DNA from: an uncultured Gammaproteobacteria bacterium
GTDB lineage: Bacteria; Patescibacteriota; Microgenomatia; CAZETR01; Amesbacteraceae
Reading direction: 5' to 3'
Assembly: GCA_964633995.1 (NCBI GenBank)
Contig: CAZWKN010000001.1
Span: 56,218 to 120,217 of the forward strand
DNA: 64,000 nt
Position 1 is the stretch's first letter, and each line of letters starts with the position of its first letter. Below are positions 16,206-37,778 of the stretch, piece after piece. The translations under genes were made by a program, and so were the position numbers. Below the pieces are notes generated by a model. It was not told the origin of the DNA and made no database searches. It saw nothing but the letters and a program-made list of their open reading frames with translations.

Positions 16206-16247
16206 AGTGCTAAGTGCAAAGTACTAAGTACTAAGGGTTAGGGTTGG
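16206..16247 (+). repeat. Heptamer array: AGTGCTA AGTGCAA AGTACTA AGTACTA AGGGTTA GGGTTGG. It spans the stop codon of the S2P gene.
   Basis: Read directly from the sequence. Confidence 0.7.
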
Positions 16248-16825
16248 CCGATGAGGAGGTTGATGATGAGGTGGGAGATGGGAGAAAGAACTGTGGAGGC
16301 CAGGCCGGTAAAAATCAAAATCATAAGTAGTAGAAAGTGGGTTTGAGAAGGTGCGCCGTAGTGATTGGTAAAGATTTTGGACCCGTCTAATGGAGCGATG
16401 GGAATTAGGTTAAAAAGGGCAAGGTTTACATTGAGACTTATAAGAGAATAAAGGACAGTGCTAAGGGTAAAGGGCAAAGTACTAAGGCGAAAAATCAGAG
16501 AAAGTATAATTGCGAGAAGAAGATTGCTGGCGGGACCGGCTAAAGCAACCAGGCGGACATCTTTTGCGGGGTTTCTGAGATTGTATGGGTCAAACGGGGC
16601 GGGTTTGCCCCAGCCAAAGGTGCCGGTAACTAGCAGAATTAGCGTGCCCATGGGATCCAGGTGGGCTAGGGGGTTTAGGGTAAGCCTGCCCATCGATTCC
16701 GGGGTGGGGTCGCCCAGCCGGTCTGCCATAAAGCAGTGGGCGGCTTCGTGTATGCCTATGGCAATAATTATGCCGCCAAATATAACCACAAAAGCGAAGG
16801 GGTTGGAAAAAAGTAAACCGAGCAT
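16238..16825 (-). CDS. Site-2 protease family zinc metalloprotease (peptidase M50, small SpoIVFB-like)
   Basis: HEAAHCFMADRLGD (HExxH in a TM helix) and a downstream LDG motif; 195 aa polytopic. Confidence 0.7.
   Translation of the reverse strand: MLGLLFSNPFAFVVIFGGIIIAIGIHEAAHCFMADRLGDPTPESMGRLTLNPLAHLDPMGTLILLVTGTFGWGKPAPFDPYNLRNPAKDVRLVALAGPASNLLLAIILSLIFRLSTLPFTLSTVLYSLISLNVNLALFNLIPIAPLDGSKIFTNHYGAPSQTHFLLLMILIFTGLASTVLSPISHLIINLLIGQP
16457..16491 (+). repeat. Heptamer array: AGTGCTA AGGGTAA AGGGCAA AGTACTA AGGCGAA. It lies inside the S2P gene and encodes LSTLPFTLSTV.
   Basis: Read directly from the sequence. Confidence 0.7.
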
Positions 16826-16842
16826 GGGTTTATTCTAACATT

Positions 16843-17619
16843 TTGACAAGTAGGTATAAAATCAAACGTATGGCTGGTGGCGAACGAATAATTACTTCTT
16901 TGTGGGCCAATGTCCCTATTCCGACGGGAGGTAGGATGGACGGGTGGAAGGCTATTCCTATCGCCTCGGAGTTGAGTGCAAACGAGAAACTGATCGATTT
17001 AGCAAAGTTGCCCTCTGGATATGGCATTGTGGTTGAGCCTAAATATTTTCTTGACGGGGTGTCTGGGGCCACTTTTGAGCAAAAACTACGAGAGGAAGCG
17101 GTGGTGAGGTTAGTTAGAGCGGCCAGGCTGGTGGCAAGCGAAGGTTTGAGAATAAAAGTATGGGATGCCCATAGACCACTTGAAACACAGCAGGGTTTAT
17201 TTGATGGTTTTTGGAGAATGCTCTCTGTCGCTAGTCCAAGCTTAAGTTATGAACAGCTGATGGCGCTTACCCAAACATACGTTTCGGTTCCAAGTGAGAA
17301 TATAACTAGGCCGTCTCCACATTTTACTGGGGGACCGGTGGACGTAACATTGGTTGATAGAGCGGGTAGAGAACTAAATATGGGTACCGGTTTTGACCAT
17401 TTTGGCCCCGAAGCGGCAACGGCGTATTTTGAGAATCCACGAAATATTGTGACGTTGAGTGATGTGGAGGCTATGATGAACAGGCGACGGTTATATCATG
17501 CAATGATTGGGGCAGGGTTTTCTAATTATTCTGAAGAATGGTGGCATTTTGATTTTGGAAATCAATTCTACGCCAGAATGACGGGGCGGCAAGCAAAGTA
17601 TGGACCTATCGCAAAATAA
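16843..17619 (+). CDS. D-Ala-D-Ala dipeptidase (VanX-like, peptidase M15D)
   Basis: Zn ligand and catalytic motifs including the SEEWWHFD-like EWWHFD and the HRPLETQ region. Confidence 0.65.
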   Translation: MTSRYKIKRMAGGERIITSLWANVPIPTGGRMDGWKAIPIASELSANEKLIDLAKLPSGYGIVVEPKYFLDGVSGATFEQKLREEAVVRLVRAARLVASEGLRIKVWDAHRPLETQQGLFDGFWRMLSVASPSLSYEQLMALTQTYVSVPSENITRPSPHFTGGPVDVTLVDRAGRELNMGTGFDHFGPEAATAYFENPRNIVTLSDVEAMMNRRRLYHAMIGAGFSNYSEEWWHFDFGNQFYARMTGRQAKYGPIAK

Positions 17620-18574
17620 TATTGACGAAAGATTTAAGCGAGTGACGCTGGGGTTGTCTTGCAGGCGGTTGGTGATTTTGGCGGGGGGTAATTCGTCTGA
17701 GGCCGAAGTGTCAAAAGTTACCGGGAGGCGGGTGCATGAGGTGCTGGAAAAAACTGGACTGGATACTGAATTGGTGGATCCAGATGGTTTTCGTATACTA
17801 GACTGGGAAGCGAAACTGAAAAACGTAGGAATGGTGTTTGTTGCCATGCACGGGGGTTGGGGGGAAAATGGTCAGTTGCAGGGTTTGTTAGATAGGTTTG
17901 GGGTTGTATATACTGGCTCTGGGGTGGAAGGAAGTTGCCTGGGTATGGATAAGCTTGCAAGTAAGAGAATTTGGCAAGCGATTGGTGTAAATACACCAGA
18001 GATTGTAGAGTTCCGAAATTGTAAAAAAACTGTTTTTCCTTTGGTGGTCAAGATAGCTGCCGAGGGATCTGGTAGGGGTGTATTTTTGGTAAAAAAGTTT
18101 GGGGAGTTGGAAAAACTGCTAATCAAATTAAAAGATAAAGAAAATGTGTTTATTGAACGGTATGTTGGAGGTCGGGAAATAAGTTCGATGGTAGTCGAAG
18201 AAAGAGGGGTGTGTGTTGTGTTACCGATTTTGGAAGCAAAGTTTAAACAGGATTTTTTTGATTACGACGCACGTTATCAGAATAAGGGGCACGCCAGAGA
18301 GGTGCCGGCCAGGTTGGCTTTGGGTGTCAGAAAAAAGATCGAGGATGACTCGATTAAAGCGTTTCGAGCCTTAAATTTACGCGATTATGCACGTTTTGAT
18401 ATCCGTTTGGGAAACAATAGCGTGCCGTATTTTTTAGAGGCGACAAGTTTGCCCGGCATGACCACTACAAGTTGGATGCCGGCAATGTTTGAGGCGGCAG
18501 GTGTTGATTTTGAGCATTTGGTAAAGTATTTGGTTTGTTTGGCATGGGAAAGGGGAAAGAATGAAAAAGTATGA
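17600..18574 (+). CDS. ddl: D-alanine--D-alanine ligase
   Basis: ATP-grasp enzyme. N-terminal LAGGNSSEAEVS motif; the LEATSLPGMT C-terminal motif; the omega-loop Tyr is present (DARYQ), indicating D-Ala-D-Ala rather than D-Ala-D-Lac specificity. Confidence 0.8.
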   Translation: MDLSQNNIDERFKRVTLGLSCRRLVILAGGNSSEAEVSKVTGRRVHEVLEKTGLDTELVDPDGFRILDWEAKLKNVGMVFVAMHGGWGENGQLQGLLDRFGVVYTGSGVEGSCLGMDKLASKRIWQAIGVNTPEIVEFRNCKKTVFPLVVKIAAEGSGRGVFLVKKFGELEKLLIKLKDKENVFIERYVGGREISSMVVEERGVCVVLPILEAKFKQDFFDYDARYQNKGHAREVPARLALGVRKKIEDDSIKAFRALNLRDYARFDIRLGNNSVPYFLEATSLPGMTTTSWMPAMFEAAGVDFEHLVKYLVCLAWERGKNEKV

Positions 18575-19349
18575 CTTGAGTAAGCTCGCTTTGGGATATG
18601 AGGCTAAACGGGCTATTCCACTCCAAGTCGAGAATGAGATTGTCCGTTTTGTGAAGAAATGGTTGAGATTTCGGGATGGAAAGTATTGGGATTTGGGTTG
18701 TGGTTCCGGAAGAATAATGGTTCCCTTGGCTAAGAGGTTATCGATGTCAAGGTGGGTGGGGGTGGATGTATCCCCCGAGATGGTAAGTAAATGCCAAGAA
18801 AAAATTGAGGAGGAAGGGTTATCAAAAAGGGTAATGATTAAATGTTTATCAATGGAAGACCCGGGGGTATTTGAGGGCAGTAGTTTGATAGATGGGATGC
18901 TTTTGTATCATTCATTTCATATGGTAAAAAATCGGGTTGAATTGGTGAAAGCAATTTATGACAAGTTGAGAAATGGTGGTCGGGTTGTTGTGGCCAATAC
19001 TACTCATAGTCAGTTGGCAACTACATTAAATTACAAGTGGTTGCCAGAGGTGCTTGAGTGGGAATATTTAAGAACTCCGGACGGCCCCGATGTGATTAAA
19101 GTGTTTCGAGAAAACGGTTTTGATTTGAAAGCAGTGAAGGAGATATGTATTAAAAAAAGCTTTAGATCAATTTCCGAATGGATTGTTTGGCTATCTGGTA
19201 GGCCAATATCCGCTTTGACATTTTGGTCGGATAGTGAACTTAGGGAGAAGCTTGATGAATTAAAACAGAAAGTGATCTTGGAGATGGGAGATCCTGAATT
19301 GGAATATGCTTATGATTTTCATACGTTATATGTGTTTGAAAAAGTATGA
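18561..19349 (+). CDS. Class I SAM-dependent methyltransferase
   Basis: Motif I DLGCGSGR. Confidence 0.6.
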   Translation: MKKYDLSKLALGYEAKRAIPLQVENEIVRFVKKWLRFRDGKYWDLGCGSGRIMVPLAKRLSMSRWVGVDVSPEMVSKCQEKIEEEGLSKRVMIKCLSMEDPGVFEGSSLIDGMLLYHSFHMVKNRVELVKAIYDKLRNGGRVVVANTTHSQLATTLNYKWLPEVLEWEYLRTPDGPDVIKVFRENGFDLKAVKEICIKKSFRSISEWIVWLSGRPISALTFWSDSELREKLDELKQKVILEMGDPELEYAYDFHTLYVFEKV

Positions 19350-19981
19350 TTTTAGAAATTCCAGAAGCTATAAAAAGGGTTCAAGGTGGAGAAATGTTGA
19401 TAGTTGTTGATGATGAAGACCGGGAGAATGAAGGAGATTTGTTTGTGGCGACTGAGAAAATAGATCCGGATAAAGTTAATTTCATGGCTACTTATGGTAA
19501 GGGGTTGATTTGTGTTAGTTTGCCGCAAAGTAGACTGGAGAAGTTAAATATTCCGCCGATGGTTCTGAATAACAGTTCAGTGCATCAGACTGCTTTTCAT
19601 TTGTCGTGTGAAGCTCGACACGGAACAACGACGGGAATTTCGGCTTATGATCGGGCATTGACGATGCAAAAAATAATCGAGGTGGGGGTTACTGGGGACG
19701 ATTTTGTTTTTCCGGGTCACGTTTTTCCTTTAGCTGCAAAAAGAGGTGGGGTTATTGAGCGGACTGGTCACACCGAAGCATCGGCAGATTTTGCTGCGTT
19801 GGCGGGGTGTAAACCTTCTGGAGTGATTGTTGAGATAATGGATGACGATGGAAGGATGGCGCGAATGTCTAAATTGGAGACTATTTCGATTAGGTTTAAT
19901 ATTGGAATTGTAACCATAAAATCCTTGGTCGAGTACAGACGTGCAAAAAATCTTACTGATTCTCTTTACGTCGATTGGTAA
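19346..19981 (+). CDS. ribB: 3,4-dihydroxy-2-butanone 4-phosphate synthase
   Basis: DDEDRENEGDL signature and overall length. Confidence 0.8.
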   Translation: MILEIPEAIKRVQGGEMLIVVDDEDRENEGDLFVATEKIDPDKVNFMATYGKGLICVSLPQSRLEKLNIPPMVLNNSSVHQTAFHLSCEARHGTTTGISAYDRALTMQKIIEVGVTGDDFVFPGHVFPLAAKRGGVIERTGHTEASADFAALAGCKPSGVIVEIMDDDGRMARMSKLETISIRFNIGIVTIKSLVEYRRAKNLTDSLYVDW

Positions 19982-19990
19982 AATACTATT

Positions 19991-20710
19991 GTGCAGAAAG
20001 TAATTGGAGAAATATTGGTTAATTATCAGGTGGTAGGGAGTGGGAAAAAGGATATGGTGGTACTTCATGGTTGGCAGGCAAGCATTGAGGAGTGGAAGAG
20101 GGTGGCTGACAACTTTTCGGAAGATGGCTACCGGGTGTTTCTCATAGATTTGCCCGGGTTTGGAGGAACCAGCCGGGTTCAAAGTGATTGGGGGGCGTAT
20201 GAGTATGCAGATTTTGTGGTGGAGTTTTGTAAAACGATGGGGGTAAAAAATCCGGTGGTAATAGGGCATTCGTTTGGGGGAAGAGTGGCCATTGTTTTGG
20301 CCGGTTTTAAAAAAATAGCCATATCCAGGTTGGTGTTGGTGGATGCGGCTGGAATGGAGATGAAAAGTTTAAAAACCAGAATGGTTAGGGTTTTGGCTCC
20401 GTGGTTCAGATGGTTACCGAAAAATATCAAAAGGATCTTGGGGTCGGCCGATTATAAAAATTCAGGAAACATGATGGAAATATTTAAGAAAGTTATTAAT
20501 CAGCCATTGCGCTACTTGCTGCCGGAGATAAAAGTGCCTACGGTGGTGGTGTGGGGTGAGCGGGATAGTATACTTCCGCTGTCCGAGGCCAAGATGATTC
20601 ATAAGGGTATCTTGGGGTCAGTGTTTCGGATTGTGTGGGGTGCAGGGCATAGTCCGCATGTGGAAAAACTTGATGAGTTTATTCAGATATTAAAGGAAGA
20701 AGGAATATGA
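19991..20710 (+). CDS. Alpha/beta-hydrolase fold protein
   Basis: GHSFGG nucleophile elbow, downstream Asp/His. Confidence 0.6.
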   Translation: MQKVIGEILVNYQVVGSGKKDMVVLHGWQASIEEWKRVADNFSEDGYRVFLIDLPGFGGTSRVQSDWGAYEYADFVVEFCKTMGVKNPVVIGHSFGGRVAIVLAGFKKIAISRLVLVDAAGMEMKSLKTRMVRVLAPWFRWLPKNIKRILGSADYKNSGNMMEIFKKVINQPLRYLLPEIKVPTVVVWGERDSILPLSEAKMIHKGILGSVFRIVWGAGHSPHVEKLDEFIQILKEEGI

Positions 20711-21897
20711 AGAATCTATTACTTTATCTAAACATCTTGCAGATTGAGGAGTATCAGGTCGATCGGTTTATTAGTTGGGTCAAAAGTCATCCCAACCCCA
20801 AGCCTCTGGAGGGTAAAAAACCGATAGTGTGGACATTGAAATTGAAATTAGTGTATTGGTTTAGCTTGGTTGTGTGGCCAGTTACATATTTTTGGCCGTG
20901 GATTGGTTTGGCAATGGGGACGACACTGATACATGTATTTGAGAGATGGGTTTTGGAGTATAGAAAAAAGCAGACCAAATTAAAAATAGCCGGACTAAAA
21001 AAGACGGGACTTAGGGTGGTGGGAATCTCTGGAAGTTTTGGTAAGACCAGCACAAAAGAGGTGTTGTATACATTGCTGCAGGGAAAATACCGCGTTTACA
21101 GGACCCCCGAAAGTTTTAATACGGTAAAAGGAATTGTTAAAGCGGTTGACCTTGAATTAGATGAGGGCTATGAAATATTTATTTGCGAGATGGGGGAATA
21201 CAAACCCGGAGACGTAAAAGAACTGTGTGAGATGGTGGATCCGGATATGGGTATTGTTACCGGCGTAAACGAGCAACATGGAGAAAGGATGGGGGGGGTG
21301 GAGAAAGCCAGGGCTACTGTATTGGAGCTGGCGGATTGGGTGGCTACTAAAAATGGTTTGGTAGTAGTAAATGGCAAAAGTGTAACTGGAACAGGCTATT
21401 TGGAATATGGAAAGAACGTTTACAGGACACCTTTGGAGCAAAATGTCGAAGGGGCTGGGATAGTGGCCGCCAAGCTTGGTATTACACCAAAAGAAATAAA
21501 GGAGCGAACGAAATTAATTAAGCCTGTTAGGCATCGGTTGGAGGTTAAGAAACATGGAGAGTTGACAATATTGGACGATACTTACAATTCAAATCCGGAT
21601 GGGTTTGCTGTTGCAATTACGTATTTGGGGGATTTTTCCGCTCCAAGGGTAGTGGTTACGCCAGGGATAGTGGAACTTGGAAGCGAGAGTGGGCGTGTGC
21701 ATCGGGAATTGGGGACGAAAATGACAGGAGTGGTGGATTTGCTGGTTTTGGTGGGCAAAAACGAGCGGACAGAGGCCCTGGTGAGTACTTTTAAGGGTAA
21801 GTGTGTGTTTGTTTCGAGTGTGAACGAATGGCGCGATGTGGTTTCCCTAGATAAGGGAGCGATTCTTTTTGAAAACGATTTGCCGGACAATTATTAA
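20707..21897 (+). CDS. Mur ligase family protein (MurF-like) with an unusual N-terminal ~100-aa transmembrane region
   Basis: Mur P-loop GISGSFGKTSTKE (compare MurF ITGSNGKTTTKEM); downstream of ddl; two hydrophobic helices at the N-terminus. Confidence 0.55.
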   Translation: MKNLLLYLNILQIEEYQVDRFISWVKSHPNPKPLEGKKPIVWTLKLKLVYWFSLVVWPVTYFWPWIGLAMGTTLIHVFERWVLEYRKKQTKLKIAGLKKTGLRVVGISGSFGKTSTKEVLYTLLQGKYRVYRTPESFNTVKGIVKAVDLELDEGYEIFICEMGEYKPGDVKELCEMVDPDMGIVTGVNEQHGERMGGVEKARATVLELADWVATKNGLVVVNGKSVTGTGYLEYGKNVYRTPLEQNVEGAGIVAAKLGITPKEIKERTKLIKPVRHRLEVKKHGELTILDDTYNSNPDGFAVAITYLGDFSAPRVVVTPGIVELGSESGRVHRELGTKMTGVVDLLVLVGKNERTEALVSTFKGKCVFVSSVNEWRDVVSLDKGAILFENDLPDNY

Positions 21898-23323: not shown

Positions 23324-24108
23324 GGTTTGATACGCTGTCCTTTTGGATCGATGCTCCAGATGCCAGGCCAACCTGAAAAGGCTCTAAGTTTTCTTTCAAT
23401 TTCTAAATTCGAAACTCTAAGCTCCAAATAATCCTTTAATTGTTTGTAGTCAATGAAACCGTCCTGGCGGGTGAGCTTGTGGGTGTAAGTCGCAAGACTG
23501 TCGTCTTGCTCTTTTAGTGCTAAGTGCGAAGTGCTAAGTGCTAAGGATAGAAATAGATCTGCTCCAAGTTCAAAGAGGCGATTACCCAACGTGATCCAGG
23601 TGTCGGTGGGCAAGATTGTATCTTTTTGGACGGCCACAATTGGGCCATGGTCCATTTTTTCGTCCATTTGGATAATGGTGACGCCGGTATCGGAAACGCC
23701 ATCTAATATCTGCTGTTGAAGAGGAGAAGCTCCTCTATATTTGGGTAGTAGCGAAGGGTGAATGTTGTAAATATGACCATTAAATTTATCCAAAATTTCT
23801 TTGGGGATTATCTTGCCGTAGGCGGCGACTAAGCCAACTATATCACCCTCTTCGGTTCCCCCTCTTAAATTCTCACTTTCGGCTCGTGCCTTCGTCGTAA
23901 GAGGGGGAAAGGGGGTGATATTTTCAATAACTGGAATGTCATTTTTTTGGGCAAATACTTTGACTGGGTTGGGGGTGAGCCTTAGATGTCTTCCGGCCGG
24001 TTTATCGGAGTTGGTAACAACACTTAGTACTTTGCACTTAGCACTTAGTACTTTCTCAAGGACTATGATGGAAAAGGGGGATGAGCCAAAAAAGACGATA
24101 TCTTGCAT
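23320..24108 (-). CDS. fmt: Methionyl-tRNA formyltransferase
   Basis: N-terminal formyltransferase fold, the HPSLLPKYRG motif, and a C-terminal domain; adjacent to def. Confidence 0.85.
   Translation of the reverse strand: MQDIVFFGSSPFSIIVLEKVLSAKCKVLSVVTNSDKPAGRHLRLTPNPVKVFAQKNDIPVIENITPFPPLTTKARAESENLRGGTEEGDIVGLVAAYGKIIPKEILDKFNGHIYNIHPSLLPKYRGASPLQQQILDGVSDTGVTIIQMDEKMDHGPIVAVQKDTILPTDTWITLGNRLFELGADLFLSLALSTSHLALKEQDDSLATYTHKLTRQDGFIDYKQLKDYLELRVSNLEIERKLRAFSGWPGIWSIDPKGQRIKP
23516..23550 (+). repeat. Heptamer array: AGTGCTA AGTGCGA AGTGCTA AGTGCTA AGGATAG (inside fmt)
   Basis: Read directly from the sequence. Confidence 0.75.
24021..24055 (-). repeat. Heptamer array in the opposite orientation: CACTTAG TACTTTG CACTTAG CACTTAG TACTTTC. 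It lies inside fmt and encodes EKVLSAKCKVLSV.
   Basis: Read directly from the sequence. Confidence 0.75.
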
Positions 24109-25461: not shown

Positions 25462-26001
25462 CTAGATGGATACCTCTTCCCAGTCTTTTCCGGTGACGTG
25501 GAAGATTTTGGAATCTTGTTCAAGTGCCCGGTCGATGAAAAGGATGCCGTTTAAATGATCCATTTCGTGTTGGATGATATGCGCAGAGAATCCTGAAAAG
25601 GATTCTTGCACAGGACTAAGTGTTAAGGGCGAAGTGCTAAGTGTCTGGTACTTTACGGTGACGCTTAGGGAGCGTTTGATGGGAGAATAGTGGGCGGGAA
25701 TGGATAAGCAGCCTTCATAAACCCCGTTTTTAGTATCTGGGATTTGGAGGCGTTGGGAGTACTTGATGATTTCTGGGTTAATGAAAAGCTGGGGCTTTTT
25801 TTTGGGATTGGGGCGAATAAAGAATATGCGGAGGGAAATGCCTACTTGGGGAGCTGCAAGGCCGACCCCGACCGGGTTTTTGGCAGCCAGCAAGACTTTT
25901 TGCATGTGGGAAATGATGTCCAACACTTTTTTATCAAGTGTGGTGACAGATTTGGCGACTTGGCGAAGAACGGGTTCGGGAACTGTAACTATGTCTGACA
26001 T
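25462..26001 (-). CDS. def: Peptide deformylase
   Basis: GxGLAAPQ, EGCLS, and HEMDHLNG motifs. Confidence 0.9.
   Translation of the reverse strand: MSDIVTVPEPVLRQVAKSVTTLDKKVLDIISHMQKVLLAAKNPVGVGLAAPQVGISLRIFFIRPNPKKKPQLFINPEIIKYSQRLQIPDTKNGVYEGCLSIPAHYSPIKRSLSVTVKYQTLSTSPLTLSPVQESFSGFSAHIIQHEMDHLNGILFIDRALEQDSKIFHVTGKDWEEVSI
25612..25646 (+). repeat. Heptamer array: AGGACTA AGTGTTA AGGGCGA AGTGCTA AGTGTCT (inside def)
   Basis: Read directly from the sequence. Confidence 0.7.
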
Positions 26002-26005: not shown

Positions 26006-27970
26006 CTATTTTAACTGAAGATTTAAAAATTCGGCAGATTCGGATGCATTTGCTGCTTTGAGAGTTAGGTAGTCTTGAAAATATTTTTTGGCTAACACTT
26101 TATCACCAGCGTATTTGGCGATTATTCCCCGGTTGTAAGGAATTTTGGGATCTGTGGGTGAAATTTTGGTTGCACCTACCAATGCTTCGTCTGCTTTGGC
26201 AAAATAGCCTTGGAAATAAGTGGCAAGAACAAGCATGGCCCGGGATTTTGTCTTGTAATAATTAGGATGGTATGGACTTATGCTTATAGCTTTGTTGGCT
26301 GCGGCTTCGGCAATACTTACAAATTTGGCCGAGGTGGTGGCGTCAGTTTCGGCGGTTAGTAAGGCCATGTAAGCTGCTGGCACAGAAAGCTCGGAAATGA
26401 TGGCTGGTTCTTGGGGGTTTAAATTGTAGGCTTGGGAAAGGTGTTGATATGAGGATATGGCGTCTTTGGGGTCCTGGGTTTGGGAAAAGATGCGAAAGTC
26501 TCTTTGGCCTTTGGCAAAGCTGATGTCTGCAGACCAATAAGTAATTATTGCATATAACGTATAGCTTAGCGCAAATAATATTAAGGTGATGGAGAAAATT
26601 TGGGATTTCGATATTACAGATTGCGTATTGCGTATTGCGTATTGCGTATTTAGAGACATCGCAATTGCGGGGAGGAGGAAGAGGAGGATTTGAGTTATGA
26701 CAACCGAAAAACCCCAGAAATTCATGACAGAAATCGATGTCCAGCCGGCCGCTAGTCCGATTATCAAATATTTACAGTCTCGCATGCTCGAACTCCCCCG
26801 CACGGCGGGGTCTCGCTGCGCGTGCTCGCTTTGTAAATATTTGATAAATACAGTTGCCATGAACCCCAATAATAATAGGTATGCTGATAATCCAAACAGG
26901 CCGGTGTTGGCCAAATAATTTAAAAATTCATTGTGAGCTTTGTTGTAAAGAAGCTCCCATTCTGATGTGTAATTGTGTTCAATAGGGCGAAATTGATAGT
27001 AAGACTGCGCAAATGTTTCCGGGCCAGTTCCGAAGATAAAATTCTTGAGGGACGCTTGCCAAATACGTAAGGCGCCTGTCCAGACAATTTTTCTGATATT
27101 GCCGGACTCTGTCCCCCCGCCTTCCAGAACAGGGGTAGATGAAATACCAATTTCTAAATTCGAAGAACCAAATATTTTGTCGCGGATCGGGTTTTTGGTG
27201 ACCAACAGAAGGAGTATGAATATCGTGTTGAGGATCAGGAAGAGTCGGATTTTTTTTGTTTTGAACGTATAGAAGCCCCAAAAGAATACTGAGGAAGTTG
27301 CAAAAGCCAATAACCCTGAACGGGATTTGGTGAAAAGGAGGGTGAGAAAGAAAACAACGCTAATAGCATAGTGCATAATGCCTATAGATCTGTTTTTTGT
27401 TGAAGTAGCGAAAGATATGGGGATGAAGATGAGTGCTACTAGATAACTGGCTAGCCAATTGGGTTGGCCAAGAGTGGAGAAAACCCGGTTTTGGACGTCT
27501 TGAACCCAGGAGGCCGAGTCGATACCAAAGTGTTGCAGAATTCCATATACTGATACGAGTGCTGTAGTGCTAAGGGCTAAGGACAAAGTCCTAAGAGTTG
27601 ATCTCTGATCCATATAGGTGACATAGGCCCAGTAAAGAATGCTGTAGCAAATCAGAGAAAGCAGGCCGCCGTTGAATCTGCTGTAGTAGCCAAAAATGGA
27701 CATGTGGGGGTCGATGGAGAAGAAGAGACTAAGAGATTGAGTGATTAAGAAGATTAAGATGGCCAGATCCAAAATTGTGCGTTGAAAGACGAGTTTTTTT
27801 TGGATAACACTGTCAATGGCCCAGGAGCTGGTAATAATTGCCGTCAGAAAGTAGACGACGATCATTTTGTTGAATTCGAAAAGTTCGGAGGTAAAGGGGA
27901 GAAAGATAAGTGGAGTAATGATAAAAAGCAGATACATGCAGATGCGGATTGTTTTTTGAGGCCAGTGCAT
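26006..27970 (-). CDS. O-antigen ligase (Wzy_C)-like polytopic membrane protein with a C-terminal TPR domain
   Basis: ~10 TM helices, the AHNEFLNYLANTGLFG motif, C-terminal TPR-like repeats. Confidence 0.6.
   Translation of the reverse strand: MHWPQKTIRICMYLLFIITPLIFLPFTSELFEFNKMIVVYFLTAIITSSWAIDSVIQKKLVFQRTILDLAILIFLITQSLSLFFSIDPHMSIFGYYSRFNGGLLSLICYSILYWAYVTYMDQRSTLRTLSLALSTTALVSVYGILQHFGIDSASWVQDVQNRVFSTLGQPNWLASYLVALIFIPISFATSTKNRSIGIMHYAISVVFFLTLLFTKSRSGLLAFATSSVFFWGFYTFKTKKIRLFLILNTIFILLLLVTKNPIRDKIFGSSNLEIGISSTPVLEGGGTESGNIRKIVWTGALRIWQASLKNFIFGTGPETFAQSYYQFRPIEHNYTSEWELLYNKAHNEFLNYLANTGLFGLSAYLLLLGFMATVFIKYLQSEHAQRDPAVRGSSSMRDCKYLIIGLAAGWTSISVMNFWGFSVVITQILLFLLPAIAMSLNTQYAIRNTQSVISKSQIFSITLILFALSYTLYAIITYWSADISFAKGQRDFRIFSQTQDPKDAISSYQHLSQAYNLNPQEPAIISELSVPAAYMALLTAETDATTSAKFVSIAEAAANKAISISPYHPNYYKTKSRAMLVLATYFQGYFAKADEALVGATKISPTDPKIPYNRGIIAKYAGDKVLAKKYFQDYLTLKAANASESAEFLNLQLK
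26620..26654 (+). repeat. Tandem heptamer (ATTGCGT) x4 inside the O-antigen-ligase-like gene (encodes QYAIRNTQ)
   Basis: Read directly from the sequence; a different unit with the same 7-nt period. Confidence 0.8.
27558..27600 (+). repeat. Heptamer array: AGTGCTG tAGTGCTA AGGGCTA AGGACAA AGTCCTA AGAGTTG (inside the ligase-like gene)
   Basis: Read directly from the sequence. Confidence 0.7.
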
Positions 27971-30248: not shown

Positions 30249-31886
30249 TTGGGAATGAGGAAGTTTAGGCCGGGGGTGAGTTTTTCTGATTTTGTAGTTT
30301 CGGATATGCGAGCTACAAAATCGAAAATAGAAGATGACACTCCTAGGGATTATCGAAGAGGGTGGTTGATTTGGGTGGGGGTGGTTGTTTTGATGGCAGT
30401 TTTGCTTGTGAGACTTTTGACCATTCAGGTTTTCTATGCAGCGAGATATAAAGTATTGGCGGACCAAAACCGGATTAAAAAAATTAAACTTACGGCCCCC
30501 AGGGGCATAATTACTGATAGGAATGGAGTTGAGTTGGCCAGAAATGTGCTTCAGGGCGATAGTTATGTGCGGGAGTACCCCTTGGGGGAAGCGGGTGTTC
30601 ATGCGGTAGGTTATGTGGGACAAGTTAAAGAGGACGAAGTGGGGATATTAAAAGAGGCGGGTGGAAAATATGATCCCGGCGACATGATAGGCCGGAGTGG
30701 AATTGAGGCGGTGTATGAAAAAAGATTAAGAGGGCTTGATGGGGGAAGGCTGGTCGAAGTGGATAATGGGTTGAACGAAGTTCGGCAATTGGGTAAGAAG
30801 TTGCCAATTGCTGGCGAAAAATTGCAATTAACCTTAGATGCAGCTCTCCAGAGGGTAGCCTATGAGGCTATGGTGGGAAAGAAGGGGGCCGTCGTGGCTT
30901 CGGATCCGAGAACTGGGGAAATATTGGCATTGGTTAGCTCGCCAGGATTTGATCCAAATACAATCAGTGCACAGTACGCAAGGCTCAGTGCTCAGAATGA
31001 TTTGCCGTTTTTTAATAGGGCGATTGGTGGAGTGTATGCTCCGGGGTCGACTTTTAAAATGACGACCACAATAGCGGCGTTGAGTTCTGGAAAAGTGCCC
31101 TTTGGTTTTACTTGGGATGACCAGGGGATTATTAGGGTCGGAAGTTATAAGTATACAAACTGGTTATTTACGTCTAGTGGAAAAGTGGAAGGAGTGATTG
31201 GTTTTTCCAGAGCCATTGCTCGGTCGACAGACACTTTCTTTTATAAGGTGGGTGAGGCGGTTGGACCTGATGAAATTGCAGATTGGGCAAGACGGATGGG
31301 ATTTTCAAATAAAACGGGAGTTGATTTGCCGGGTGAGGTTGGGGGATTGGTAGTAGACCCAGAGTGGAAACAAAAACATAAGAATGAATCTTGGTTTTTG
31401 GGAAATACGTACCAAATGGCAATAGGCCAGGGAGATACTCTGGTTACACCTATTCAGGTCAATTTGATGACAAATATTATCGCTAGTGGTGGCAGAAAGT
31501 GTGGACTGCATTTAAACTCAATGCTCAGTGCTCAATGCTCAATGCTCAATATTTCACCTGAAATTTTGAAAGTTGTGAGGGCAGGGATGGTGGGGGCTTG
31601 TAGTGCTGGGGGAACAGCGTTTCCTTTGTTTGGATTTGTACCCCAAGTGGCGTGCAAAACGGGTACTGCAGAATATATGGCTGATTCAGGAAAGATTCGG
31701 ACACATGGTTGGTTAACGGCTATGGCTCCCGCTGATAATCCAACGATTTCAATTTCCGTATTAGTCGAAGCCGGTGGGGAAGGATCAAACTCCGCTGCTC
31801 CTGTTGTCAGAAAAATGTTGGCCTGGTACTTTGGAGTGGAGGACAATTACAATTATGCAGCAATCCCAAAGGGTGAGGGGGAATAG
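30249..31886 (+). CDS. mrdA: Penicillin-binding protein 2 (transpeptidase)
   Basis: N-terminal TM, PBP dimerisation domain, GSTFK (SxxK) and KTG motifs; follows mreB. Confidence 0.85.
   Translation: MGMRKFRPGVSFSDFVVSDMRATKSKIEDDTPRDYRRGWLIWVGVVVLMAVLLVRLLTIQVFYAARYKVLADQNRIKKIKLTAPRGIITDRNGVELARNVLQGDSYVREYPLGEAGVHAVGYVGQVKEDEVGILKEAGGKYDPGDMIGRSGIEAVYEKRLRGLDGGRLVEVDNGLNEVRQLGKKLPIAGEKLQLTLDAALQRVAYEAMVGKKGAVVASDPRTGEILALVSSPGFDPNTISAQYARLSAQNDLPFFNRAIGGVYAPGSTFKMTTTIAALSSGKVPFGFTWDDQGIIRVGSYKYTNWLFTSSGKVEGVIGFSRAIARSTDTFFYKVGEAVGPDEIADWARRMGFSNKTGVDLPGEVGGLVVDPEWKQKHKNESWFLGNTYQMAIGQGDTLVTPIQVNLMTNIIASGGRKCGLHLNSMLSAQCSMLNISPEILKVVRAGMVGACSAGGTAFPLFGFVPQVACKTGTAEYMADSGKIRTHGWLTAMAPADNPTISISVLVEAGGEGSNSAAPVVRKMLAWYFGVEDNYNYAAIPKGEGE
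30965..30999 (+). repeat. Heptamer array: CAGTGCA CAGTACG CAAGGCT CAGTGCT CAGAATG (inside mrdA)
   Basis: Read directly from the sequence. Confidence 0.6.
31517..31551 (+). repeat. Heptamer array: CTCAATG CTCAGTG CTCAATG CTCAATG CTCAATA (inside mrdA)
   Basis: Read directly from the sequence. Confidence 0.75.
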
Positions 31887-31900
31887 TTTGCAATGGGGGT

Positions 31901-32188
31901 TTGAAAAAGAGTAGTATAAGATTAATGGCCGGAGGATTTAGTGTAGAGGAAATTCGAGATGCAATGCAGCAGTTGAGGGATGTGGTGCGGACAAAGAGAG
32001 AAAAGGTGGTTAATATGTGGCAAGATCCGCCACCGCCGGTTATGTTGGCTTATGGGGCTACGGTGCTGGTGTCGGGGGTGTTGATGGCATCAATGGGGAA
32101 TTGGTCAAATTTAAAAATGCCAAGGGGTGGGGGTGGGTTGGAGATTTTAATGGAACTAATGGTTAATTCTGATGGACTAAGTGGATAA
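31901..32188 (+). CDS. Hypothetical protein
   Basis: 95-aa ORF. Confidence 0.3.
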   Translation: MKKSSIRLMAGGFSVEEIRDAMQQLRDVVRTKREKVVNMWQDPPPPVMLAYGATVLVSGVLMASMGNWSNLKMPRGGGGLEILMELMVNSDGLSG

Positions 32189-32546: not shown

Positions 32547-32575
32547 TACATCGGGTAAATGATACAATTGCGGAT

Positions 32576-34546
32576 ATGGATTTGATAATTGTAGAGTCGC
32601 CAACCAAGGCCAAAACCCTGTCCAGGTTTTTGGGTAAGGGTTATGAAATTGAAGCTTCTTATGGTCATATAAGAGATCTGCCGCAAAAGAAATTAGGTAT
32701 AGATATGAAATCTAATTTCTTGCCAGAATATGTGCAAACGGATAAGCAGATTAAGAGGACTGAGGAGATTAAGAGATTAAGCAGCAAGGCTAAAACGATA
32801 TATCTGGCAACTGATCCTGACCGGGAGGGTGAGGCAATTGCTTGGCATGTGGGGGAAGTGCTAGGTACTAAGGGCAAAGTACTAAGACGGGTTACGTTTC
32901 ATGAAATTACCAAGAAGGCGATAGAAGAGGCGTTGAAACATCCCGGAGATGTAGACATGAAACTTGTGAATGCGCAGCAGGCAAGGAGAGTGTTGGACAG
33001 ATTGGTTGGATACAAATTGTCTCCATTACTGTGGAGAAAGATTAGAAAGGGATTATCTGCCGGTAGAGTGCAAAGTGTGGCGGTAAGGCTCATTGTAGAT
33101 AAGGAAAGAGAAATTGAAGCCTTTGTTCCCGAAGAGTATTGGGATATAAAAGTAGAGTTGCAAAAGTTGCACAGTTTACCAGTAGAACAGTTAACAGTTA
33201 AGTTGGTAAGTGAAGAAGTTAAGAACGGAGAAGATGCGAGTAGGGTCGAAAACGATCTTAGGGTGGCGGAGTTTGTGGTGGTGGGGGTGGATAAAAAGAA
33301 AGTAACTAGACTGCCGTTGCCGCCGTTTACAACTTCTACCTTGCAGCAGACTGCGGCCAATAAATTGGGTTGGAGTGCGAAAAAGACGATGCAAGTGGCG
33401 CAGAATTTATACGAAGAAGGATTAATAACCTATCACAGGACTGACTCAGTGAATATAGCATCTGAGGCAAGTGCTCAGTGCTCAGCCCTCATAGTTTCCC
33501 AATTTGGAAAAGAGTTTGCGTTGAATACGCCGAGACTATTTAAAACCAAATCTAAGTCGGCTCAGGAGGCGCACGAAGCAATAAGACCGACGGACGTCGG
33601 GCAAATTGCAGATCGCTTATCGCTAATTGCAAATAAGGACCAGGGGCGATTGTATGAACTGATTTGGAAAAGGTTTGTGGCTTGTCAGATGGCAGAGTCC
33701 ATAGGGGAGAGTGTAAAAGTAAAAATTCAAGCAGGAAGATATGGATTGGAGGCCAGAGGATTAACTATTAAGTTTGAAGGATGGCAAAAGGTGTACGGTG
33801 TCGATAAAGAAGAAGATGAGGGGGTGAAGTTGCCGGAGCTAGAATTGCAAGAGAAGTTGGATTGTGTGGATGTTTTGAAAACTCAGAAATTTACCCAACC
33901 GCCAAGTAGATATAATGACGCCAGTCTAATAAAAGCCTTGGAAGAGATGGGTATAGGTCGGCCTAGTACCTATGCGCCGACGTTGTCGACAATTGCTGAA
34001 CGTCAGTATGTAGAAAAAGTGGAGAAAAGGTTTAAACCAACGGCGTTAGGGATTGCGGTGAATGATTTTTTGGTAACTAATTTCGAGAAAATCGTGGATT
34101 ATCAGTTTACTGCCAAAATGGAAGAAGAGTTGGACGAGATAGCTGGTGGTGAAATGGAATGGCAGCCGGTTATCGCCCAGTTTTACGAACCGTTTGAAAA
34201 AGAATTAGACCGGGTACAGGAAGTTTCGGTGAGAGTGAAGGTGGAGGCCGAGTTGACTGGAGATAAGTGCCCTGATTGTACTTCGACGGGCTCAGTACAA
34301 GTTGGTGACGTGGTGGTCAGGATCGGAAAGTTTGGAAGATTTTTGGCATGTAGCCGGTATCCGGAGTGTAAATATAAAGCTAATTACCAACACAAGGTGG
34401 GTGTAAAGTGTCCGAAATGTGGGACAGGTGAAGTGATCATGAAAAAGACCCGTAATATGAAGACGTTTTTTGGTTGTAGCAATTATCCACAATGTGAATA
34501 CGCGAGTTGGAATAAGCCTGTTGTTTCAGCGACGGTAAGTGTGTGA
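32576..34546 (+). CDS. topA: DNA topoisomerase I with C-terminal zinc ribbons
   Basis: Toprim IVESPTKAKT, the active-site Tyr region GLITYHRTDS, and multiple C4 zinc ribbons. Confidence 0.9.
   Translation: MDLIIVESPTKAKTLSRFLGKGYEIEASYGHIRDLPQKKLGIDMKSNFLPEYVQTDKQIKRTEEIKRLSSKAKTIYLATDPDREGEAIAWHVGEVLGTKGKVLRRVTFHEITKKAIEEALKHPGDVDMKLVNAQQARRVLDRLVGYKLSPLLWRKIRKGLSAGRVQSVAVRLIVDKEREIEAFVPEEYWDIKVELQKLHSLPVEQLTVKLVSEEVKNGEDASRVENDLRVAEFVVVGVDKKKVTRLPLPPFTTSTLQQTAANKLGWSAKKTMQVAQNLYEEGLITYHRTDSVNIASEASAQCSALIVSQFGKEFALNTPRLFKTKSKSAQEAHEAIRPTDVGQIADRLSLIANKDQGRLYELIWKRFVACQMAESIGESVKVKIQAGRYGLEARGLTIKFEGWQKVYGVDKEEDEGVKLPELELQEKLDCVDVLKTQKFTQPPSRYNDASLIKALEEMGIGRPSTYAPTLSTIAERQYVEKVEKRFKPTALGIAVNDFLVTNFEKIVDYQFTAKMEEELDEIAGGEMEWQPVIAQFYEPFEKELDRVQEVSVRVKVEAELTGDKCPDCTSTGSVQVGDVVVRIGKFGRFLACSRYPECKYKANYQHKVGVKCPKCGTGEVIMKKTRNMKTFFGCSNYPQCEYASWNKPVVSATVSV
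32857..32891 (+). repeat. Heptamer array: AGTGCTA GGTACTA AGGGCAA AGTACTA AGACGGG. It lies inside topA and encodes EVLGTKGKVLRRV.
   Basis: Read directly from the sequence. Confidence 0.7.
33466..33491 (+). repeat. Heptamer array: AGGCAAG TGCTCAG TGCTCAG CCCTCAT (inside topA)
   Basis: Read directly from the sequence. Confidence 0.6.
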
Positions 34547-34558
34547 TATATTTGAAGC

Positions 34559-35152
34559 ATGAGAGCTAGGGGTTTGTTTGTAGTGTTGTATGGTCCTGAG
34601 GGAGTGGGTAAAAGCAGACAGGCGGGACTTTTGGAAGAGCGATTAAGAGACGAAGGGGTGTTGGTTAGAAGAGTCAGATATCCCGTATATGAAGCCGGAA
34701 AAACGGGAGCGCAATTGGATGAGATGTTGCATAGAAAAAAGATTTCTTTGGATGAAAAGGATATGCAGAAGTTGTTTGCGAAAAACAGGAAAGAATTTGA
34801 ACCTACCTTGAAGGCCTGGCTTAACTCAGGGATGACAGTGATTGCCGAAGGTTACAAGGGGACCGGGATTGTGTGGGGGGTGACCAGAGGGCTAACTGTC
34901 GAGCAGATGGATGAGATAAACGAGGATACTTTGGATCCTGATTTGTCTATATATATTGATGGACCAATGAGAACAGAAATGGCCGATCCGGCCCATCCGT
35001 ATGGGGATGAAGAAGAATGGTACCAGCTGAGAAAGACATATTTTCAAATGGCAGATAGGTATGGATGGATTAGGGTGGGTGGAGATGCGCCGATACTAAC
35101 GGTGGCTTCCAGGATTTGGGCTGTGGTTAAACCAGTTGTGGGATCGAGGTGA
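34559..35152 (+). CDS. Thymidylate-kinase-like P-loop kinase
   Basis: VVLYGPEGVGKSRQ Walker A and small-kinase size. Confidence 0.5.
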   Translation: MRARGLFVVLYGPEGVGKSRQAGLLEERLRDEGVLVRRVRYPVYEAGKTGAQLDEMLHRKKISLDEKDMQKLFAKNRKEFEPTLKAWLNSGMTVIAEGYKGTGIVWGVTRGLTVEQMDEINEDTLDPDLSIYIDGPMRTEMADPAHPYGDEEEWYQLRKTYFQMADRYGWIRVGGDAPILTVASRIWAVVKPVVGSR

Positions 35153-35370
35153 CTGAGTGCGAAAAATCTAGGTTTGTTTGTTGGCTTGATAAGCCGGATG
35201 GGGATTACGAATCGGCTGTGTGTTTGGTGTGTCAGGCGGCTGTGAGGATAGCTATGCAGGGAGGCCGTGCCGTTATGACAAATGAAATGTGTGTGGGGCA
35301 TAGAAAAAAGTGTATGCAAGTGTGGCTTCTGACCGTAAAATCCGCCCTCGAACGGGAAGGAAGAGTGTAA
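35149..35370 (+). CDS. Hypothetical small Cys-containing protein
   Basis: 73-aa ORF. Confidence 0.25.
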   Translation: MTECEKSRFVCWLDKPDGDYESAVCLVCQAAVRIAMQGGRAVMTNEMCVGHRKKCMQVWLLTVKSALEREGRV

Positions 35371-35398
35371 AAGGCTTGGGTGTGGTATATTTGGCGGG

Positions 35399-36583
35399 AT
35401 GGCAAAAGTGGAAGAAGAGTTGGCTGAAATTACCTGCGGCGTTGGAGCTGAAAATATGGGTAGGTATCGGGACTTGAGGTGTTTGGGAAGTTCAGTGTTG
35501 GCTATCGCAAACCAGGTCGATGGAGGTAGTGGTTCGATGGGTAATTTCTTTGCCGAACAGGATGTTTTAAGTAGATTTGGAAGAAGTATTGGCAGGAGTG
35601 ATCCTTTGTCCAGGGCAGTATTGGTATCTATGGTTGCTGCCCAAAAGGGTAGGGTATTGGGTGGGAGTAGGGCTTGGCAATTGTTGACGAATTGGTTTGA
35701 CAGGTCGACGGCAGGATTTTTGTTGGAAGCAAAAGAAATGTTGGATGAAGTAAAACCCAGAATGAGTGGAGCGTTTACTCGCGTATCAGAAACTCAGTTG
35801 AGAGATACTAGTGAATCTTTATTACGATCACCAGTAAAAACAGAGCTTTTAGCTGTGTTGGGTCTGAACGGTTGTGGAAAATCGACAATGGTTGGGGCAT
35901 TAGTAGAATTTGGAATAAGATTGGGCATAGGGGTATCAACGGTAAAGTTTCCTCGGGATGGTGAAGTGGGTACGGTTATAAAGAAGCGATTATCTGGAGG
36001 GACGTCGCTAGACGGAGCAGCATTTCAGATGTTATTTTTGGCCGATTTATTTGATTATTTAGCTAATATTGATCTGAGTAGGCCTTTATGTGTGGCAGAT
36101 CGACTAGCGATGTATGATGGACAAGTATATAGTCCTGAAGTTACTCGCTTGTTGAGCTTGTACGCAATGGAAGCGTTGGATTTGCCGGTTACTGCGCTAG
36201 TTGTTGATAGACATCCGGGATTGTGTCACGAAAGAGTTTTGAAAAGGGAAAATAAACCGCGAGTGTTTGAACAAGGTGTGAAGCAAATGGCGCTGCAGCA
36301 AGTTGAGTTTTGGCGATTGTTGGGTTTGCCTGGGGTGCATTTGTTGAATGTGGATGTAGCTGATCCGTCTGCCGAAGGTCAGGTGGCTTGGGCAAAATAT
36401 AATGTTGTTAACTCTGCGGCAAGAGCAGGAGTTTGGCAGAGGGCGTTGATGCGATCCGGTATGGCAGGCAATTTGTCAACGGCTGATGGGATGGTGTTTG
36501 ACCAGGTGCACGGATATTTTATGGATATGATGTTTGGACCGGATGGAAATTATTTGTACGGAAGCGATGCGCAAGAGGTATAA
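35399..36583 (+). CDS. P-loop protein with a thymidylate-kinase-like core and a ~130-aa N-terminal extension
   Basis: LGLNGCGKST Walker A and a DRLAMYDGQVYS region resembling the Tmk DRY...AYQ motif. Confidence 0.4.
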   Translation: MAKVEEELAEITCGVGAENMGRYRDLRCLGSSVLAIANQVDGGSGSMGNFFAEQDVLSRFGRSIGRSDPLSRAVLVSMVAAQKGRVLGGSRAWQLLTNWFDRSTAGFLLEAKEMLDEVKPRMSGAFTRVSETQLRDTSESLLRSPVKTELLAVLGLNGCGKSTMVGALVEFGIRLGIGVSTVKFPRDGEVGTVIKKRLSGGTSLDGAAFQMLFLADLFDYLANIDLSRPLCVADRLAMYDGQVYSPEVTRLLSLYAMEALDLPVTALVVDRHPGLCHERVLKRENKPRVFEQGVKQMALQQVEFWRLLGLPGVHLLNVDVADPSAEGQVAWAKYNVVNSAARAGVWQRALMRSGMAGNLSTADGMVFDQVHGYFMDMMFGPDGNYLYGSDAQEV

Positions 36584-36590
36584 TTTTGCA

Positions 36591-37778
36591 ATGGACGACG
36601 TGGTGTTTGGGTTGATTGAAAAAGAACAGCGAAGACAGGGGGAGACGCTGGCTATGATTCCTTCTGAAAATTATGTTAGCAAACAAGTGCTCAGGGCTCA
36701 GGGTTCAGGGCTTGGTAACAAATACTCTGAAGGGTATCCCGGAAGACGGTATTATCAGGGTAATAAAATAATTGATGAAATCGAGAATTTAGCCATAGAA
36801 CGAGCTAAAAAGTTGTTCAATGTGGATTATGTAAATGTCCAACCCTATTCGGGTAGTCCGGCGAATTCGGCAGTGCTGATGGCTCTTTTGGAACCCGGAG
36901 ACAAAATAATGGGTTTGAAATTGTCAGGCGGCGGACACCTGACACATGGGCACCCTAAAGTAACTTTTTCAGGAAAATTTTTTAATTCGGTGCAGTATGA
37001 TGTAAATTCTGATGGGTGGATTGACTATGATGAGGTAGAAAAATTGGCGAAAGCAGAAAAACCCAAATTAATGATAATTGGAACGACTGCGTATCCTAGA
37101 ATATTTGATTTTAAGAGATTTAAGGAAATCGCGGATGGGGTGGGTGCAAAGGTTTTGGCTGATATTTCTCATATTGCGGGACTTGTGGTGGGTGGAGTGC
37201 ACCCTAGCCCGGTAGGGTTTGCCGATGTAATTACCACCACAACCCATAAGACTTTACGGGGGCCGAGGGGGGCGATGATTATGACAAATGACGTTGAACT
37301 GGCGAAAAAAATTGACAAAGCAGTGTTTCCCGGACTGCAGGGTGGACCACACAATAATACGACGGCGGCGATTGCTGTTTGCTTGGGTGAAGCCGCAACG
37401 CCAGAATTTACATACTATGCAAAGCAGGTGGTAAATAATGCGAAGGCTTTGAGTGAAGAACTCGTGAAACTTGGGTTTAAATTGACTACGGGTGGGACGG
37501 ATAATCATTTGATGGTTATCAATTTGGGTGGTGGAGGTAAGGATGCGGCTGAGGATTTGGAAAGGTCGGGAATAATTGTAAATTATAATACCGTGCCGCA
37601 TGATCCCAACCCCCCCGCTAATCCATCGGGAATCCGACTAGGAACTCCGGCTTTGACTACCAGGGGGATGAAGGAAGGCGAGATGAGAGACATCGCCCAG
37701 ATGATATTTGAGGTGATTAAAAACAAGAAACAGGTTAGTGTGTTGGAGTTGTGCAGAAAATTTCCATATGATTTTTGA
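36591..37778 (+). CDS. glyA: Serine hydroxymethyltransferase
   Basis: The PLP-site TTTTHKTLRGPRG and the N-terminal SENYVS...AQGS...NKYSEGYPG region. The start was moved to the ATG at 36591 by homology with E. coli GlyA. Confidence 0.9.
   Translation: MDDVVFGLIEKEQRRQGETLAMIPSENYVSKQVLRAQGSGLGNKYSEGYPGRRYYQGNKIIDEIENLAIERAKKLFNVDYVNVQPYSGSPANSAVLMALLEPGDKIMGLKLSGGGHLTHGHPKVTFSGKFFNSVQYDVNSDGWIDYDEVEKLAKAEKPKLMIIGTTAYPRIFDFKRFKEIADGVGAKVLADISHIAGLVVGGVHPSPVGFADVITTTTHKTLRGPRGAMIMTNDVELAKKIDKAVFPGLQGGPHNNTTAAIAVCLGEAATPEFTYYAKQVVNNAKALSEELVKLGFKLTTGGTDNHLMVINLGGGGKDAAEDLERSGIIVNYNTVPHDPNPPANPSGIRLGTPALTTRGMKEGEMRDIAQMIFEVIKNKKQVSVLELCRKFPYDF
36686..36713 (+). repeat. Heptamer array: AGTGCTC AGGGCTC AGGGTTC AGGGCTT. 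It lies inside glyA and encodes the conserved VLRAQGSGL.
   Basis: Read directly from the sequence. Confidence 0.6.

Follow-up and report, generated by a model that had tools for sequence, protein, structure and literature searches.

Heptanucleotide arrays of the AGTGCT family in housekeeping genes of a Candidatus Amesbacteria genome: a shared orientation within the expectation from strand composition

The stretch of DNA described here (64,000 nucleotides of contig CAZWKN010000001.1, below referred to as the window) belongs to Candidatus Amesbacteria, a member of the Microgenomates within the candidate phyla radiation (CPR), as do its nearest named relatives. It carries tandem arrays of a 7-nt unit, AGTGCTA or a close variant of it, nearly all of which run in the same sense along the chromosome. 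This orientation bias of the AGTGCT family is not beyond chance once the composition of the strand is allowed for. The arrays are probably short (3–5 units), degenerate, in-frame heptanucleotide microsatellites, located in permissive, indel-prone loops of housekeeping genes, and arrays of period 7 are a feature of the whole lineage. On balance, we regard the common + sense as a passive result of the G/C disparity of the chromosome strand, the AGTGCT sense being the one that carries the G excess.

Identification of the arrays

Members of the family were taken to be sites at which four AGTGCTA units in a row match with no more than 9 mismatches out of 28, and shuffles in 500-nt blocks, which preserve the skew, served as the null. 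Ten sites were found on the + strand and one on the − strand, compared with 0.3 and 0, respectively, in the shuffles. The + sites start at positions 16206, 16457, 23516, 25612, 27566, 30966, 31520, 32857, 33463, and 36686, whereas the sole − site occupies positions 24025–24052, in agreement with a preliminary description of this DNA in which only the fmt array near 24021 was inverted. In that description, eleven of twelve arrays were counted as AGTGCT-type on the + strand; the strong bias toward one sense is real, but the twelfth array was probably the one at 26620, which is built of another unit, ATTGCGT. The family is loosely defined, and its members at 30966 and 33463 are weak.

Seven is the sole tandem period that yields arrays in the window, with three found at the strict threshold, compared to none for periods 4–6 and 8–12 (Tandem Repeats Finder (TRF) and a period scan). 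The host genes, as assigned by Pfam, are those of an M50/S2P protease, fmt, def, and a Wzy_C ligase-like protein on the minus strand, as well as mrdA, topA, and glyA on the plus strand, and all members of the family are either genic or overlap a stop codon. The presence of the arrays in genes of both directions, with a sense independent of the direction of the gene, is thus borne out for the AGTGCT family in the window. The form of the unit is AGTGCTA in the minus-strand genes and at one site in topA, and AGTGCTC or AATGCTC in mrdA, at the second site in topA, and in glyA.

Strand composition and orientation

The + strand of the window consists of 29.3% G, 14.8% C, 28.3% A, and 27.7% T, with G and C thus present at approximately 2:1 and A nearly equal to T. 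The GC skew, the calculation of which had been proposed in the preliminary description, is +0.33 for the whole window and is positive in every 2-kb bin, ranging from +0.17 to +0.43, with the cumulative skew monotonic across the 64 kb. A direct look for a switch of the skew found none within the window, nor in any of the fetched loci. At third codon positions, the skew of the + strand (GC3 skew) exceeds zero in 66 of 66 open reading frames (ORFs), whichever their direction, with a typical value of about +0.5, corresponding to a G:C ratio of about 3:1. G is more abundant than C on the + strand in 83% of all 30-nt segments, and C is more abundant than G in 12% of them. Coding sequence amounts to 43.8 kb on the + strand and 13.5 kb on the − strand, placing 76% of it on the G-rich strand.

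This strand asymmetry is a trait of the lineage that has already been published for Microgenomates. The closed genome Ch65 has a composition of 14.97/29.83/27.87/27.33%, with about 29.8% versus 15.0% for C and G and with A close to T (Kadnikov et al. 2020, PMC7143001), and the same disparity is present in Ca. Collierbacteria and Ca. Beckwithbacteria (PMC7143001). The cumulative skew is near-linear around whole closed Microgenomates chromosomes, without a flip, and mostly unidirectional replication was suggested on that basis (PMC7143001). The window resembles these genomes in the split of about 30% and 15% between G and C, in the near equality of A and T, and in the independence of the disparity from gene direction, including synonymous positions. 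It differs from Ch65 in carrying most of its coding sequence on the G-rich strand, whereas gene numbers in Ch65 are roughly equal on the two strands (PMC7143001). The skew of the window is known over 64 kb, while its course along the whole chromosome is known for the closed Microgenomates genomes. Since no flip is seen in the latter, a reversal at the origin and terminus, against which the orientation of the arrays could be tested, may not exist. The assignment of the + strand as the leading one is plausible in view of the excess of coding sequence on it, although in the related closed genomes a disparity of this kind is found with no flip (PMC7143001).

In a composition-only model, each array was scored against its own reverse complement using the base frequencies of the window. 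The number of arrays expected in the observed sense is 8.66 out of 11, compared to 10 observed, with P(≥10) = 0.17; models with a single seed give P = 0.07 at odds of 2:1 and P = 0.20 at odds of 3:1. Outside the arrays, the ratio of heptamers composed like AGTGCTA to heptamers composed like its reverse complement is 1.93:1, and the ratios for individual words of the family extend from 17:7 (AGTGCT) to 21:1 (GCTAAG), with some words as even as 13:10. The bias falls within the expectation from composition and is thus not a signal similar to Chi or to the FtsK orienting polar sequences (KOPS). The earlier claim that orientation follows the chromosome strand and not transcription stands in so far as the ratio in the window is 10:1 regardless of the gene, but that ratio is no higher than composition predicts. 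Likewise, a strand-asymmetric mutational or repair process can be invoked only in a general way, as the G/C disparity of the strand as a whole, and is not specific to the arrays, which are less skewed than their surroundings (G/(G+C) of 0.59, compared to 0.66 in the background). The substitution spectrum of the array units, taken as a read-out of strand mutation, comprises 10 gains and 9 losses of G and is not informative, in part because several of the changes are forced removals of stop codons. The orientation bias by itself therefore adds little, since it restates a strand disparity already reported for Microgenomates, nor does it provide grounds for assuming a system of the Chi or KOPS type in CPR bacteria.

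It could also be argued that no biological rule of orientation exists, and that the ratio of 10:1 is a small-sample outcome of a loose family, some members of which were inherited with their genes while others are coincidental. The P values of 0.07 to 0.20 under the simple seed models are compatible with such a view; in addition, two to three members are weak or encode a motif that we take to be conserved, and the inherited arrays of fmt are not independent events. However, the six best + AGTGCTA arrays (16206, 16457, 23516, 25612, 27566, and 32857) all have one sense, five of them being located inside or at the end of genes on the minus strand and the sixth inside a plus-strand gene, and the direction of the bias is the one predicted by the skew. 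We consider this explanation distinctly unlikely.

Arrays at orthologous sites in related genomes

The arrays of the window belong to a class that is common in its relatives. The related fmt loci from metagenomes, 572 kb in total, contain 62 arrays of period 7, compared to no more than 6 for any of the periods 5, 6, and 8–11. Protein alignments of the window with the related loci L123, L205, and L207 place arrays at orthologous positions in topA (two sites, 32857 and 33186), mrdA, the Wzy gene (two sites), def, the S2P gene, and fmt, with units that differ from genome to genome. The unit in mrdA is AATGCTC in the window and AATGTTC in L205, differing by one substitution in every unit, and the unit in the Wzy gene is ACGCTAT in L123 and TCGTTAT in L205. 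One substitution repeated across every unit of orthologous arrays points to concerted evolution. L205 (68% identity in fmt) and L123 (about 60%) have no detectable AGTGCTA array, alignment revealing only a degenerate homologue of the C-terminal array of fmt in L205. The inverted array of fmt is common to the window, L208, and L125. The C-terminal array of fmt is common to the window and L205, whereas L208 and L125 have AAAATTG-type arrays in its place. Since these fmt arrays are shared with relatives, some of the arrays must be old and inherited together with the gene. No difference in copy number was seen between paired assemblies of the relatives, L123 being the same as L124 throughout, and L206 and L207 listing the same two arrays. 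As to their location in the protein, the site at 25612 in def corresponds to the loop of a β-hairpin that is five residues longer than in the solved structure of a deformylase (1lme). Searches of the literature found nothing specific on heptamer arrays inside genes of CPR bacteria.

The fmt–topA region is rich in arrays in L123 and L205 as well. In the region of the CysRS gene, L211 has five arrays, while L210 and L212 have none. In L205 (GCA_016176615.1), an Amesbacteria relative, a 2-nt deletion near position 7268, not at an array, splits def into two ORFs; the split gene may be a pseudogene or result from an assembly error.

Translation of the arrays

Because 7 and 3 have no common factor, a heptamer array inside a gene passes through all three reading phases. 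If the array is a perfect AGTGCTA repeat, each of its plus-sense frames contains TAA and each of its minus-sense frames contains TAG, which places AGTGCTA among the 13% of heptamers that are closed by stop codons in both senses. In turn, AGTGCTC, the unit used by the remaining plus-gene arrays, is open in the plus sense only. Direct reading of the sequence shows that each of the five minus-gene arrays with the TAGCACT coding sense has TCG or TTG in place of the in-frame TAG, and that the in-frame TAA is changed to AAA in the N-terminal array of fmt and in topA. Such single-base patches, which remove the in-frame stop, indicate that the arrays are translated and are under purifying selection. 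Since AGTGCTA is closed in both senses, translation favours neither of them, and it would then be composition that decides.

A slightly laxer scan of the related loci together with the window yields a wider sample of 86 arrays, 71 of them within ORFs of at least 80 amino acids. Among these 71 genic arrays, the consensus unit is open in the coding sense in 48, and for 29 of those 48 the reverse is closed; C exceeds G on the coding strand in 48, and G exceeds C in 18. In this lineage, the sense of an array is thus usually set by translation and not by the chromosome strand. Similarly, in the relative genome of which L123 and L211 were taken as two regions, the dominant family, CCCAAAT, has the coding sense in five of five genic arrays.

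Taken together, these observations best support a process in which slippage would create heptanucleotide repeats at permissive loop-coding sites, with repeated slippage or conversion homogenising them. Translation would then filter the arrays, with the removal of stop codons, and the ambient composition of the strand would set their sense wherever translation is indifferent.

Clustering of the family and alternative explanations

Several observations weigh against the interpretation of the arrays as microsatellites with a passively acquired sense. The orientation counts come from one 64-kb window of a Candidatus Amesbacteria genome. All 11 AGTGCT arrays are located within 20.5 kb (16206–36713) and none in the other 43.5 kb, where the skew is alike (P = 3.7e-6 for uniform placement), and this confinement to 20 kb is left unexplained by composition. 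Three period-7 arrays are present outside the 16–37 kb region, but they have other units (CAAGAAA at 45595, and AATGGAC/AATTGAC at 50824 and 56373). Moreover, slippage alone is insufficient to explain why several hot spots of a genome have a common unit when their orthologues in other genomes have different ones. Finally, the CCCAAAT copies in the genome represented by L123 and L211, including one intergenic copy, are found on the G-rich strand in four of six cases and on the C-rich strand in two of six, the presence of this C-rich unit on the G-rich strand being opposed to the skew and indicating that selection at the level of the peptide can override composition. Of the three TATTCAG arrays in the same genome, one is on the G-rich strand, the remaining two being on the C-rich one.

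A copying or template-switch process coupled to replication, acting over a short range and preserving direct orientation, would account, in place of base composition, for the clustering as well as for the common sense if it had recently spread the AGTGCT family from one hot spot to those nearby. In accord with such a spread, 11 of 11 members lie in the 16.2–36.7 kb region, with none in 43.5 kb of equal skew, and at least four hot spots (those in S2P and def, and those designated Wzy-126 and topA-95) are AGTGCT-type here while having other units in L123 and L205. The fmt arrays, although old enough to be common to relatives, are among the most regular ones (1–3 mismatches), which argues for active homogenisation. 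On the other hand, the flanks of the arrays have no similarity to each other, and arrays of unrelated units share no homology that would allow conversion. Single-strand folding is symmetric (−1.1 and −1.2 kcal/mol in one comparison, −3.5 and −3.1 kcal/mol in the other, with no significant z-scores), the families of L123 and L211 follow the sense of the gene or are mixed, and the orientation count is within the expectation from composition. A recent spread of this kind is therefore possible, although fairly unlikely.

We can speculate further, at a level of confidence lower still, that an active replication-coupled process keeps genome-specific heptamer families at hot spots in essential genes, and that AGTGCT recently took over neighbouring hot spots in one sense. 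Were this unlikely scheme true, replication-coupled maintenance would tie the birth and homogenisation of the arrays to the unusual, possibly unidirectional, replication suggested for the group.

Two other candidates were rejected. A strand-specific hairpin was considered because AGTGCT is quasi-palindromic, with G-T pairing confined to one strand, but it was discarded since both strands fold weakly and symmetrically. An insertion resembling a miniature inverted-repeat transposable element (MITE) was discarded since the arrays have neither conserved flanks nor target duplications.

Comparison with known systems

KOPS are read by FtsK, and Chi is read by RecBCD or AddAB. The preliminary description likened the arrays to such motifs, and their resemblance lies in the strand-biased sense on the presumed leading strand, whatever the direction of the gene, with 76% of the coding sequence on that strand. 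A polar DNA signal, read by a translocase or a recombinase and oriented with replication, would have these properties. However, the arrays of the window are tandem and clustered instead of being dispersed as single words, and two thirds of the window is free of them; isolated AGTGCTA words outside the arrays number only three on the + strand and one on the − strand. The unit is not conserved in relatives with 60–70% protein identity, and the arrays are degenerate exactly where translation needs them to be. Furthermore, a scan of genome contigs with the pattern AGTRCTAAGTRCNAAGTRCTA gave at least 120 matches in many unrelated phyla. Among the matches listed, AGTGCTA or AGTACTA arrays, often long and perfect, are found in Chlorobium, Gemmatimonadota, Bacteroidota, Planctomycetota, Psychrobacter, and a metagenome-assembled genome (MAG) of Anaerolineae, the last with many copies, and of 114 loci with AGTRCTA arrays in other phyla, 60 have the unit on the G-rich strand (p = 0.64), with no link to the local skew. 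In view of these differences, and of a bias that does not exceed composition (P = 0.17), a replication motif of the Chi or KOPS type is not supported and is highly improbable.

The closest parallels to the arrays, interpreted as microsatellites, are the heptanucleotide simple sequence repeats (SSRs) of other bacteria, which include the short tandemly repeated repetitive (STRR) sequences of cyanobacteria, GGGAATC in Xanthomonas and Nostoc (PMC4692102), and TAACTGA in Beggiatoaceae and cyanobacteria (PMC4679880). Common to these and to the arrays described here are head-to-tail 7-nt units in 2–6 copies, the presence of several families per genome, the unique over-representation of period 7, and the limits set by stop codons on placement and sense (PMC4692102, PMC4679880). 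The STRR, GGGAATC, and TAACTGA repeats are overwhelmingly intergenic, whereas the arrays described here are in frame in essential genes, at orthologous loops, patched to remove stop codons, and composed of genome-specific units. Phase-variable contingency loci also have tandem units that are not a multiple of three inside ORFs, but there the tract is long and perfect and its slippage turns on and off a dispensable gene, encoding a surface protein or a restriction-modification (R-M) system, while the arrays described here are short (3–5 units) and degenerate, and are found in fmt, def, topA, mrdA, and the S2P gene. Rickettsia palindromic elements (RPE) are selfish DNA present in frame in protein-coding genes. 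They resemble the heptamer arrays in their small size and in being tolerated, in frame, where a conserved protein is permissive, but the arrays have neither an inverted-repeat structure nor conserved ends.

More important than the orientation are the in-frame 7-nt microsatellites themselves, which occupy conserved loop positions in essential genes (topA, def, fmt, and mrdA) and have a unit sequence that turns over between genomes and yet is common to the hot spots within a genome. If general, this would represent an undescribed mode of evolution of protein loops in CPR bacteria. In practical terms, frameshifts and assembly breaks may occur at such arrays, making them a hazard for annotation. 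The arrays also provide a means of approaching slippage and repair in organisms whose sets of repair genes are reduced.

Individual arrays in the window

Two arrays are associated with the minus-strand M50/S2P gene. The first one, on the + strand at 16206–16240 (AGTGCTA AGTGCAA AGTACTA AGTACTA AGGGTTA; TRF and scans, 3/28 mismatches), overlaps the stop codon of that gene (16238–16240) and is not inside it. The second one, a degenerate + strand AGTGCTA array at 16457–16484, is located within the gene, encodes LSTLPFTLST with the in-frame TAG changed to TTG, and corresponds to an orthologous hot spot in L205 and L207.

The minus-strand fmt gene contains arrays of both orientations. The C-terminal hot spot, on the + strand at 23516–23545 (AGTGCTA AGTGCGA AGTGCTA AGTGCTA; TRF and scan, one mismatch), encodes SLALSTSHLAL with TAG changed to TCG, and its degenerate homologue is found in L205. 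The N-terminal array, at 24018–24052, is the only inverted one; its minus-strand reading, AGTACTA AGTGCTA AGTGCAA AGTACTA AGTGTTG, is the coding sense of fmt and encodes KVLSAKCKVLSVV, with TAA changed to AAA (TRF and scan; same site in L208 and L125).

In the minus-strand def gene, a degenerate + strand AGTGCTA array at 25612–25646, detected by the scan, encodes QTLSTSPLTLSP. In the minus-strand Wzy_C gene, which is similar to O-antigen ligases, the scan detected a degenerate + strand AGTGCTA array at 27566–27593 that encodes LRTLSLALST and coincides with the hot spot occupied by ACGCTAT in L123 and TCGTTAT in L205. The Wzy_C gene also contains, at 26620–26650, a perfect + strand array, (ATTGCGT)x4.4, that is outside the AGTGCT family (TRF and period scan); at that site, L205 has (GAATCAG)x4.5. 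Positions 1–30 of the Logan contig L122, which comes from the same sequencing run (SRR8893623), correspond to 26620–26650 of the window, with the end of the contig falling exactly inside this perfect ATTGCGT array, which may reflect heterogeneity of copy number or a break of the assembly graph at the repeat.

The arrays in plus-strand genes are all on the + strand. In mrdA, a weak AGTGC-like stretch of period 7 at 30966–30993, found by the scan with 9/28 mismatches, is a doubtful member of the family, whereas the array at 31517–31550, (AATGCTC/AGTGCTC)x4.9, encodes NSMLSAQCSMLN and has the counterpart (AATGTTC)x4 in the L205 ortholog (TRF and scans). In topA, the array at 32857–32884 (AGTGCTA GGTACTA AGGGCAA AGTACTA; scans) encodes EVLGTKGKVL, with TAA changed to AAA, and lies at a hot spot also seen in L123, while the one at 33463–33490 (AGTGCTC x2.3; TRF and scan) encodes SEASAQCSAL, its unit having no stop codon in any of the three plus-sense frames. 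In glyA, the array at 36686–36713 (AGTGCTC AGGGCTC AGGGTTC AGGGCTT; TRF and scan) encodes QVLRAQGSGL, in the segment VLRAQGSGLGNKY of serine hydroxymethyltransferase (SHMT), which we take to be a conserved motif that closely matches the E. coli GlyA protein; the periodicity may be coincidental.

Other repeats and genes

An in-frame palindromic element of about 70 nt is present in fmt at 23846–23915 of the window. Its arms are TTCCCCCTCTTA and TAAGAGGGGGAA, it encodes PFPPLTTKARAESENLRGGTEEGD, and it is also found in fmt of L205. A near-identical palindromic element is located in def of L206 and L207 (8656–8703), at the hot spot of the def array. Analysis of these copies suggests that the element shared by fmt and def may be a mobile in-frame element, reminiscent of RPE. 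A perfect 26-nt palindrome, TCCCTCTCCTGAATTCAGGAGAGGGA, occurs twice in the window, at 38175–38200, inside folD, and at 52005–52030.

A family of period 8, AAGAGATT or AAGCGATT, with 3–4.5 units, is found at 27723, 45466, 47915, and 50731, as well as at 32743, all copies having the + sense in genes of both directions; its unit is rich in purines and in G, and it thus fits the composition of the strand too. The region 38534–39946 encodes a 470-residue protein that comprises a GGDEF domain and a weaker match to the second palm domain of Cas10/Cmr2 (PF22335, E = 5e-7).

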